DNA of 42,850 nucleotides from a virus. A program made the position numbers and the translations under genes. Where the stretch lies: UHGV virus genome UHGV-0182515; one strand, 5' to 3'. Positions within the stretch are counted from its first letter, which is position 1; each line of letters starts with the position of its first letter. Shown here in pieces: positions 5,313-7,403 of this stretch. The notes below the pieces were generated by a model. It was not told the DNA's origin, searched no databases, and worked only from the letters and a program-made list of their open reading frames with translations.

Positions 5313-5606
5313 TCAGTCATTACTGATAGCGCCATAGCGTGAGCGGTAATTACGCAGGCGCGGGTCAATTTCAGGGAAGTGGGTATATGTGGCTTTGCGG
5401 AATGGTCGGATTGATGTCTGGTAAATTCGCTCGCGTTCTTCTTTCTCTGCAAGCCATATACAATGGCGAAATTCCTTTTCCTCTTTCGTTTCCTGCGGTA
5501 GCGACATTATCCGGTCGTAGTTTTTCCTGAATTTATCCAGCACCTCCGATACGGAATTGCCGGAACAGCGGCGCGCGTCATCCGCACCATACAGAGGCGC
5601 TGGCAT
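5313..5606 (-). CDS. Hypothetical phage early protein (97 aa)
   Basis: ORF in the early operon; no recognisable domain. Confidence 0.4.
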
Positions 5607-5622: not shown

Positions 5623-6171
5623 TTATTTAGCTAACTTTTTCCAGATCGCTGAAACGTATTTGGCTTGGTGAATGGCATCATCAAGAGCGTTGTGGCGAGT
5701 TCCTTTGAATGGCATATCTCGCTTAGGGTCGAATCCTATTACCTTTCCAAGCTCGACGATTGTTCTTACGTCGCGGTCATTCCACCACTGCCACGGAACT
5801 GGCTGCCCTGTCAGCGAATAACTGTTTCGGAGAATAACGCAGTCAAATGATGCTCCATTCCCCCAAACCTGAACGAATTTGTGGTTAGCGTTCTTTATGA
5901 TGAATTCAGATAACCATGAAAGAGCCGTTGAAAGCTCCTGAGTGTTGCTGGTTAGCGATTTTCTGGCTTCTTCACTCTGTTCCATCCACCATAAAATCGT
6001 TGAAGCGTCAGGACGCGCTCGATATCGCATTGATGACTCAAGCGAGATATTTACCGAGAACTCTTCTCCTGTTTCTCCGGTATTCGGGTCAAAGAATACC
6101 GCCCCAATAGAAATAACTGGCGCGTATGGCCCGTTGCCTATTGTTTCAAGGTCAACCATCAAGTGATTCAT
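5623..6171 (-). CDS. DEDDh-family 3'-5' exonuclease
   Basis: MVDLETIG (Asp/Glu motif I) and H.ALDDA (motif III with His) are present in the translation. Confidence 0.65.
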   Translation of the reverse strand: MNHLMVDLETIGNGPYAPVISIGAVFFDPNTGETGEEFSVNISLESSMRYRARPDASTILWWMEQSEEARKSLTSNTQELSTALSWLSEFIIKNANHKFVQVWGNGASFDCVILRNSYSLTGQPVPWQWWNDRDVRTIVELGKVIGFDPKRDMPFKGTRHNALDDAIHQAKYVSAIWKKLAK

Positions 6172-6179
6172 GTAAGTCC

Positions 6180-6695
6180 TTAAATTGCGTGAATAGCGTG
6201 ACGAGGGAAAGGGAGAGTTACTGGTGCAAAGGGGATATCGTCGTCAAAATCCATAGGTGGTTCGCTGTGATTTCCCTGCTGCTGAGGTTGCTGTCTTTGT
6301 TGCTGACCATTATTTCGCTGAGGTGAAGACTGTTCATTGCCTCCTTGCTTGCCACCAAGCATTTGCATGGTTCCACCAACTCCCACGATGACTTCGGTAG
6401 TGAACCGATCCTGTCCGCTTTGATCCTGCCATTTTCTTGTCCGCAATTTGCCTTCAAGATAAACCTCAGAGCCTTTTCGCAGATATTCGCTGGCAATTTC
6501 TGCCAGTTTCCCGCTCATTACCACGCGGTGCCACTCCGTCTGCTCCTTTTGCTCTCCAGTTTTCTTATCACGCCATTGTTCTGACGTAGCAACGGTAAGG
6601 TTTGCAAATGCCGTTCCTGATGGTGAATATCTGATTTCTGGATCATGCCCAAGGCGACCAATAATGATCACCTTATTTACGCCTCTGCTTGCCAT
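6180..6695 (-). CDS. ssb: Single-stranded DNA-binding protein (phage SSB) with a C-terminal extension
   Basis: N-terminal OB-fold region [16 protein letters not shown].., Gly/Gln-rich linker, and the acidic MDFDDDIPF motif followed by 15 additional residues before the stop. Confidence 0.85.
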
Positions 6696-7403
6696 TTATG
6701 CCGCCTGTTTTAGTTCGTTAACTCTGATGTTCATTACCTGAACGCATTTAGCCTGCGCCTCCTCGTTGCCAGCCATTAATTGCCAGTCACGCTGATAACG
6801 CTCGATGAGTTTTTTCTTGTCAGTTTCTGTCGCTGCATAATCGCTGAAGTCTTTCAGGATTTGTTCGCAGTCAACCGATGGAGATTTCTGGTTGGTATTT
6901 TCTGGTGATGGTTTGTTATCTGATGCTGGGATTGCCCATCCCGGAAGTGATGGAGGGAGCCAGTAAAATCCTGTTCCATCCTTCAGTTTTGCCCTGTGCC
7001 ACCCCTGCTTTTTATCGAGAGATGTTTGTGCGAAACCTTCCTCAAGGTTATACAGATACCTACCGATTCCCCACTGAACGGCAGCGCGCTTCATTGCACC
7101 GGAACGACCACCTTTGACGGCTTCTACCTGCGTGTTTTCAGCAGCATCCCATTTGGTTACCCATTCGGAATCAATCTTTATTGATATGCCGCATTCAACG
7201 CCGCCGTTGTTGGGAATATCGCGGTATTCATTGCGCCATCCTGCTTTGCCGCAAACATCGTCCAGGCGTTTCATGATTGCCCTGTTCGTGACATAAGCCA
7301 GCACCATAGCCCACACCTTTCCATCGCGTGTTTTACCGCTTTGCTGTATTCGCCATTCGATATCTTCAGGGCTGAATGGCTCATCGAATTTGTTCAAATC
7401 CAT
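6696..7403 (-). CDS. Rad52-like single-strand annealing protein
   Basis: Sits where a recombinase is expected next to ssb; the N-terminal region shows the Rad52/Sak-like pattern (..AYVTNRAIMKRLDDVCGKAGWRNEY..). Confidence 0.5.
   Translation of the reverse strand: MDLNKFDEPFSPEDIEWRIQQSGKTRDGKVWAMVLAYVTNRAIMKRLDDVCGKAGWRNEYRDIPNNGGVECGISIKIDSEWVTKWDAAENTQVEAVKGGRSGAMKRAAVQWGIGRYLYNLEEGFAQTSLDKKQGWHRAKLKDGTGFYWLPPSLPGWAIPASDNKPSPENTNQKSPSVDCEQILKDFSDYAATETDKKKLIERYQRDWQLMAGNEEAQAKCVQVMNIRVNELKQAA

Follow-up and report, generated by a model that had tools for sequence, protein, structure and literature searches.

The C-terminal tip of SSB (single-stranded DNA-binding protein) of E. coli, SSB-Ct, is a hub for about 17 partner proteins. 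In the accepted model, genome-maintenance enzymes universally dock on the last residues of SSB, which end in a free Phe. Host partners dock the tip in a pocket that holds both the terminal Phe and its carboxylate. Phage ssDNA-binding proteins such as T7 gp2.5 and T4 gp32 also have acidic C-terminal tails for partner recruitment, and gp2.5 needs its terminal Phe. When E. coli SSB has GFP attached directly to its C-terminus, ExoI binding is lost and ssDNA binding is kept, and the fusion is dominant negative when supplied from a plasmid (PMC7293020). In phage HK620, the last six residues of SSB (NDYPPF) recruit the cognate annealase Sak4 (PMC5928155).

We analysed a 42,850-nucleotide stretch of viral DNA (virus genome UHGV-0182515; the whole stretch is called the window below). 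The ssb gene on its minus strand encodes a bacterial-type SSB. The product matches PF00436 (E=3.7e-38, residues 6-105), scores 183 bits with TIGR00621 against a cut-off of 54, and matches the PDB entries 7f2n (E=4.5e-66) and 1eqq (E=7.1e-66). One hallmark of SSB is present, namely a Gln/Gly/Pro-rich linker (residues 113-147) followed by DDDIPF (residues 151-156). Another is absent: the acidic motif does not stand at the extreme C-terminus with a free Phe alpha-carboxylate, as 15 residues follow Phe156. On the coding strand, the 3' end of the gene reads GAC GAC GAT ATC CCC TTT, then GCA CCA GTA ACT CTC CCT TTC CCT CGT CAC GCT ATT CAC GCA ATT TAA. In this protein, every match of an NCBIfam SSB profile ends with Phe156; curated SSB models go no further than that residue, which makes the extension invisible to annotation. 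A preliminary description of this DNA had pointed out a 15-residue extension past DDDIPF. Its residues and coordinates were correct; the codons are read on the minus strand, which it did not mention. It was also right that the tip is internal, with 15 codons (6183..6227) between the codon for Phe156 and the stop. The features discussed below are as follows.

6180..6695, minus strand: ssb gene, 171 aa and stop (ORF list, PF00436, NCBIfam SSB models)
6360..6695, minus strand: OB-fold DNA-binding and tetramerisation domain, residues 1-112 (Pfam and PDB matches; dN/dS 0.13)
6255..6359, minus strand: Gln/Gly/Pro-rich disordered linker, residues 113-147 (hypervariable among homologues; dN/dS 0.34; pLDDT about 30)
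6228..6254, minus strand: acidic SSB tip region, residues 148-156, internal here (sequence; NCBIfam matches end at 156; dN/dS 0.017)
6228..6245, minus strand: DDDIPF codons, residues 151-156 (sequence)
6183..6227, minus strand: 15-residue extension, residues 157-171 (sequence; 116/120 top homologues; homologous extensions elsewhere)
6180..6182, minus strand: ssb stop TAA (overlaps the Shine-Dalgarno-like AAGGA in front of the exonuclease gene; homology with relatives whose downstream genes are different ends here)
6227..6228, minus strand: Phe156/Ala157 junction (two unrelated HNH endonuclease genes are inserted here in relatives; the window has the uninterrupted allele)
6696..7403, minus strand: Rad52/22-like single-strand annealing protein gene, directly upstream of ssb (PF04098, E=5e-26)
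5623..6171, minus strand: Rv2179c-like 3'-5' exonuclease gene, downstream of ssb (PF16473, E=8.9e-73; not linked to the extension)
5313..5606, minus strand: Abc2 anti-RecBCD gene (PF11043, E=5.6e-63)

The ssb gene of the window is part of a recombination operon with the genes for the annealase, the exonuclease and Abc2. The annealase stop codon directly adjoins the ATG of ssb in the same reading frame (6695/6696). At the other end of the gene, in ATT TAA GGA CTT AC ATG (6171-6182), the AAGGA ribosome-binding sequence overlaps the ssb TAA and lies 8 nt ahead of the exonuclease ATG. Together, the abutting start and the overlapping stop suggest translational coupling along the operon. Two related database entries may be mentioned here. 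A representative protein of 144 aa (P0121) has SSB residues 1-113 joined straight to the last ~30 residues of an Rv2179c-like exonuclease (...GTMQMRDMPFKGTRHNALDDAIHQAKYVSAIWKKLAK); from its sequence, it is apparently the product of a deletion allele that has lost most of the exonuclease together with the linker, the tip and the extension. Also listed, in the cluster that contains the window SSB at 90% identity, are 98-aa DUF2856 / phage anti-RecBCD (Abc2) proteins, which looks like a database clustering oddity and not biology.

An internal DDDIPF has an unusual look, and this is the only reason to think of an artefact or a recent accident. The preliminary description had named two, a sequencing error and a stop-codon mutation, either of which would have made a read-through. 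Neither fits the distribution of the extension. The exact 171-aa SSB is recorded on at least 1000 contigs. The extension is present in 116 of the 120 best homologues (by whole-protein similarity; 75-97% identity), from E. coli, Salmonella, Klebsiella, Citrobacter and Enterobacter, and it keeps its length of 15 residues amid abundant synonymous variation. The 141-nt region of tip and extension has a match at 90% identity or more in 406 of 5426 complete E. coli genomes. (Of the matches in genome contigs outside Enterobacterales, most are due to chance and lie in other frames.) There is practically no chance that either accident explains the extension, which is a genuine, ancestral part of SSB under purifying selection. 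The alignment with related SSBs that had been proposed as a check thus reveals a conserved extension, and since related functional SSBs commonly bear it, the window SSB is not aberrant. The general statement that bacterial and most prophage SSBs end in DDDIPF needs a sizeable exception: the ssDNA-binding proteins of phages and plasmids include a large clade in which this is not so.

The pattern P-x-TLPFPRH fits 112 of the 116 extensions, despite the hypervariable linker just upstream. Across 56 distinct extension-bearing genes, dN/dS is 0.13 in the OB domain, 0.34 in the linker, 0.017 in the tip and 0.055 in the extension. Along a minimum spanning tree of 25 distinct sequences, 58 changes in the extension codons are synonymous and 15 non-synonymous, even though synonymous sites make up only 27% of the total. 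Nine extension residues were forced by the DNA search pattern; the six codons free of this constraint show 20 synonymous against 12 non-synonymous changes. The bias introduced by the pattern is small (~3%), since only four of the 116 extensions retrieved by homology fall outside it. Between genera, up to about 9 of the 15 codons differ synonymously, and in Enterobacter, Kluyvera, Lelliottia, Buttiauxella, Citrobacter and Pseudescherichia many third positions have changed and the residues have not. Where the downstream gene is a different one, homology ends precisely at the ssb stop codon. From this end point and from the synonymous variation between genera, it follows that the extension belongs to ssb and is constrained as protein.

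Conservation in the E. coli and Salmonella alleles has an additional component. Here dS in the extension is 0.16, compared with 0.8-0.9 in the rest of the gene, so that part of the apparent conservation is due to DNA sharing by recombination. The DNA of tip and extension is near-identical between the window (6183-6260) and L002 or other E. coli and Salmonella loci, though the OB domain and linker differ by about 30%; the pattern points to the 3' end of ssb as a recombination or mosaic boundary. Could the 45 nt be kept for something other than protein, be it regulation, a gene that overlaps ssb or a recombination boundary? Besides the low dS, the overlap of the ssb stop with the ribosome-binding site of the next gene would agree with this. 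However, third-position variation between genera is plentiful and the extension is kept next to entirely different downstream genes. Promoter, terminator and Rfam scans over the extension found no feature, and an opposite-strand ORF across the end of ssb (6126..6326) has no support. Selection on the DNA or RNA as such is therefore extremely improbable as the explanation.

Related extensions of 14-15 residues, of the form AP[IV][GT]L-x-[FYH]-[PG]-x-x-x-[IL]-x-x-[ILM]-COOH, are found after the tip in four cases: SSBs of Vibrio and Hafnia phages, an IncN plasmid SSB, a phage-plasmid-like SSB and the non-homologous phrog_4477 proteins. Tip and extension thus form a portable bipartite C-terminal module. 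A set of 69 distinct 15-residue extensions gives the profile A(93%) P(99%) [IV] [GT] L(99%) [PQM] [FYH] [PG] [R..] [H..] x [IL] [HYN] x [ILM]. A scan of IMG/VR for D-I-P-F-A-P-I-G-L yielded at least 120 contigs, whose tails are 14-15 residues long and of about 55 different kinds, among them APIGLPYPRHAIYVI, APIGLMYPRHLINVI and APIGLQYPALLMCM; the number of contigs is at least 120 for each of the two extension patterns. In the last ten codons of the APIGL clade, which the pattern leaves unconstrained, pN/pS is 0.39. Internal DDDIPF followed by other short tails (e.g. APVPFY, AQVPYLAGI, RQYQHRQLY, NYGEHDPR) was seen in the SSB representatives P0145, P0157, P0202, P0203, P0257, P0264 and P0269; some of these tails may be further extension types and some gene-calling artefacts.

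Among cultured phages, the SSBs of Hafnia phage Pocitis76 and Vibrio phage 1.079.O have a related extension at the C-terminus. Of 607 matches to a 29-residue tail query in cultured-phage records, 129 cover at least 80% of it, i.e. reach the extension; the same coverage is attained by 68 of 696 plasmid matches. Extension-bearing plasmid SSBs include those of the IncN conjugative plasmid pNDM-ECS01 (L286 2006-2539) and of pCVMN1543 (L288 2054-2590). Besides that of the IncN plasmid, the SSB of an 86-kb phage-plasmid-like replicon ends in a related extension. On pNDM-ECS01, ssb adjoins two antirestriction genes, one unnamed and the other ArdR, and a gene for a SprT-family protease.

The phrog_4477 proteins (315-423 aa, no Pfam match) are encoded by large lytic phages of the Vequintavirinae and Stephanstirmvirinae. 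They have an SSB-like acidic tip, mostly with the extension, as in Klebsiella phage VLCpiM5a, rV5_ev168 and muut. Their sole BLAST similarity to the window SSB is in the last 27 residues. Judging from sequence, phrog_4477 may comprise unrecognised ssDNA-binding proteins of these phages. The loci considered were L287 1364-2584, L289 801-2072, L290 1125-2072 and L162 269-1486. In rV5_ev168, a gene annotated 'endonuclease VII' (L289 2044-2667), which is read in another frame, shares 29 nt with the 3' end of the extension-bearing gene, and it may be a further mobile nuclease beside the tail.

One conceivable role for such an extension would be that of a cap, whose sequence does not matter. Its sole effect would be to block the Phe carboxylate and so keep host nucleases and helicases off phage recombination intermediates. 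The loss of ExoI binding on C-terminal fusion (PMC7293020) agrees with this idea, as does the presence of a gene for the anti-RecBCD protein Abc2 in the same operon. But any extension would serve as a cap, and yet both the residues and the length of 14-15 are conserved across phages, plasmids and a non-homologous scaffold; moreover, the internal tip is still under very strong selection. We find it quite unlikely that capping is all that the extension does. For the same reasons, i.e. the conserved residues and length and the transfer of tip and extension onto a different scaffold, we favour a second docking motif over a mere cap.

Free-standing HNH homing endonuclease genes of phages are known as presence/absence polymorphisms at conserved gene sites. 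In relatives of the window, two unrelated HNH endonuclease genes are inserted exactly between the Phe and Ala codons (window 6228/6227), as the junction alignment of Sf6, Huey and ES18 shows (L001 2472-2966, L161 2960-3445 and L163 1969-2531, respectively). In Sf6, IME10, N7 and CurroJimenez, SSB stops after ...DDSDIPF and is followed by an in-frame gene for a 159-aa endonuclease (Sf6 gp26; phrog_2340 'endonuclease', E=2.6e-47; no match in a Pfam search). Lacking its own stop, the Sf6 gp26 ORF runs into the extension codons of ssb, which encode the last 14 residues of the enzyme; a variant of this tail is also found. The Huey enzyme is 48% identical to Sf6 gp26 and has the same site and the same tail. 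In ES18 and S135, a different HNH gene (phrog_1872/6254/59, 'T7 gene 7.7-like') follows the same Phe codon, has its own TAATAA stop and replaces the extension, which is deleted; ES18 gp47 matches several 'HNH endonuclease' PHROGs, e.g. phrog_6254 with E=7.4e-30. Both insertions leave SSB with the canonical free IPF end. Loci in IMG/VR that hold the motif comprise about 85-100 uninterrupted ssb genes and 27 interrupted by HNH genes. As Sf6, ES18 and Huey are viable without the extension on their SSB, laboratory growth, at least, does not require it. In Hafnia phage Pocitis76 (L160 1984-2508), the genes for the ERF annealase and SSB are separated by an HNH endonuclease gene that overlaps the ssb start, which would be a third insertion position around ssb.

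An alternative origin of the 15 codons would be an HNH gene whose 3' end stayed joined to ssb when the endonuclease was deleted; homing and gene conversion could then have spread identical flanking DNA and mimicked conservation. The Sf6-type HNH ORF does end in the same 14 residues, and the extension DNA is near-identical in E. coli and Salmonella alleles that differ elsewhere. The tail is nevertheless foreign to the phrog_2340 family, because the phrog_2340 profile spans only residues 1-143 of the 159 in Sf6 gp26, and because the homologue in Pectobacterium phage DU_PP_I (50% identical) has no such tail and ends at ...NNDPVY. Vibrio and Hafnia phages, plasmids and lytic phages have homologous extensions but no HNH gene with them. 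The second, unrelated HNH gene simply deletes the extension, and the synonymous divergence between genera described above leaves the residues intact. That the extension is an endonuclease scar is thus very unlikely. In DU_PP_I, the gene for the phrog_4477 homologue, which ends at ...DFDLDIPF, is directly followed by the start of the phrog_2340 endonuclease gene. Taken with the Sf6-type ssb, this places the phrog_2340 family behind the tip codon of two unrelated genes.

A different role can also be imagined for the tail, which stays in frame on the Sf6-type HNH protein. The hydrophobic, His/Arg-containing C-terminus might be a degron for a host AAA+ protease (ClpXP or Lon) and would limit the lifetime both of the foreign SSB and of the endonuclease that borrows it. 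The last residue is a conserved hydrophobic one, within the pattern [HYN]-x-[ILM]-COOH, and ...HAI-COOH resembles the ...KAI of MuA. The MuA-type recognition motif of ClpX, ...RRKKAI-COOH, consists of basic residues, then a small one, then an aliphatic one. The window SSB ends in ...PRHAIHAI, but many family members end in ...LLMCM, ...LLHCI or ...LINVI and have no basic residues there. In addition, the most conserved part of the extension is the proximal AP[IV][GT]L and not the extreme C-terminus. A degradation tag is thus an unlikely explanation.

When the neighbourhoods of 141 dereplicated loci were clustered, ssb was the only gene family that the two extension clades had in common. A Rad52-like annealase gene is upstream of ssb in 56 of 63 TLPFPRH-type loci. 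Its linkage is confined to the TLPFPRH lineage, where it stands just as often beside extension-less, HNH-interrupted alleles. More generally, the gene upstream of an extension-bearing ssb can encode a Rad52-like protein, ERF or a wholly different product, and what lies downstream also varies. Since no neighbour co-occurs with the extension, and since plasmids and lytic phages carry it as well, the likeliest target is a conserved host protein or the ssDNA-binding protein itself. An AlphaFold2 monomer model (37-sequence alignment; mean pLDDT 54, below 50 for residues 106-171) was uninformative on docking of the extension.

One candidate can be suggested. The motif that binds the beta sliding clamp is QL[SD]LF or QLxLx[LF]. 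Hydrophobic residues at clamp-like positions 2, 4 and 6 are present in the extension as P-[IV]-[GT]-L-x-[FY] (residues 158-163) and are conserved across the family. The Gln at position 1 of the clamp motif is absent; residue 158 is Pro in 99% of distinct extensions. The beta clamp is therefore a candidate partner by resemblance of P-[IV]-x-L-x-[FY] to QLxLx[LF] minus Gln. Added contacts of the PxxP type are a further candidate role of the extension.

The reading that we prefer, and that is probably right, is that tip and extension form a selected bipartite module, which masks canonical docking and carries a second docking motif that re-addresses the ssDNA coated by the element. In such a scheme, the extension would remove the free alpha-carboxylate of the terminal Phe of the tip, which host partner pockets use. 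As these pockets would find the carboxylate buried by 15 residues, weaker canonical docking is expected, and host partners such as ExoI would bind less well to ssDNA coated by an SSB of the window type. The conserved positions A157, P158, I/V159, L161, aromatic 163, I/L168 and I/L171 would then act as a second short linear docking motif, with a conserved host protein or the ssDNA-binding protein itself as its target. The net effect would be that element-coated ssDNA is re-addressed to a set of partners different from that of host SSB.

The main point that this leaves unexplained is the tip. Extreme conservation of the internal DDDIPF (dN/dS 0.017) implies that it still does something, which is hard to reconcile with a simple abolition of tip function. 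By analogy with the SSB-GFP fusion, changed partner binding through the internal tip, as put forward in the preliminary description, is plausible. A more specific and more speculative version can also be put forward, and we regard it as possible, with some doubt. Tip and extension might be a docking peptide peculiar to mobile elements, bipartite in nature, which binds a conserved host replication/repair hub in a way that host SSB does not. The beta clamp would be the candidate, with P-[IV]-x-L-x-[FY] standing right behind the chi-binding DDDIPF. The ssDNA-binding proteins of phages, plasmids and lytic phages might in this manner redirect host machinery to their own ssDNA or shield that ssDNA from host nucleases, and two or more endonuclease families might favour the junction for homing.

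Whatever the partner is, the tip motif is perfectly kept, yet buried under a second conserved peptide, in a large and conserved class of ssDNA-binding proteins from phages and plasmids. A tip that is buried and kept would mean either that there is a second mode of tip recognition or that mobile elements deliberately re-wire the host SSB interactome. This could be relevant to recombineering, where compatibility of phage annealase and SSB matters, and to early plasmid establishment, since the SSB of an IncN plasmid bears the extension. The endonuclease insertions offer natural extension-minus alleles for comparison.

How does the window locus compare with the systems already described? As with free-standing HNH homing genes, the genes of the Sf6 gp26/Huey type and ES18 gp47 occupy one identical site in otherwise collinear ssb loci. 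Unlike typical free-standing HNH genes, the Sf6-type ORF borrows the last 14 codons of ssb; cleavage and homing by these enzymes are putative. Like T7 gp2.5 and T4 gp32, the window SSB is a phage ssDNA-binding protein with a C-terminal acidic peptide. The tails of gp2.5 and gp32, in contrast, end at the acidic/aromatic motif and have no conserved hydrophobic add-on. The window SSB shares with the SSB-GFP fusion, which retains ssDNA binding, a tip that has been made internal (PMC7293020). That fusion is artificial and bulky, whereas the extension is natural, short, conserved and presumably has a function of its own.

Among the papers covered, full-text searches with motif strings and topical literature searches returned no prior description of the extension; a preprint on Pol-SSB pairs concerns another system. 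The nearest published case is the SSB of phage HK620. It too is a phage SSB in a recombination module beside a single-strand annealing protein, and it binds a partner through its C-terminal tail. However, HK620 SSB has a variant tip with a free Phe, and its partner is encoded by the neighbouring gene, whereas the tip of the window SSB is internal and no neighbour tracks the extension. With E. coli SSB, the window protein shares an OB-fold about 70% identical over the aligned region, the architecture of the disordered linker and an identical tip motif. The last residue of E. coli SSB is Phe; in the window SSB, 15 conserved residues come after it. What appears to be new, as far as the sequences tell, is a conserved additional module on the tail of a bacterial-type SSB, widespread on mobile elements.
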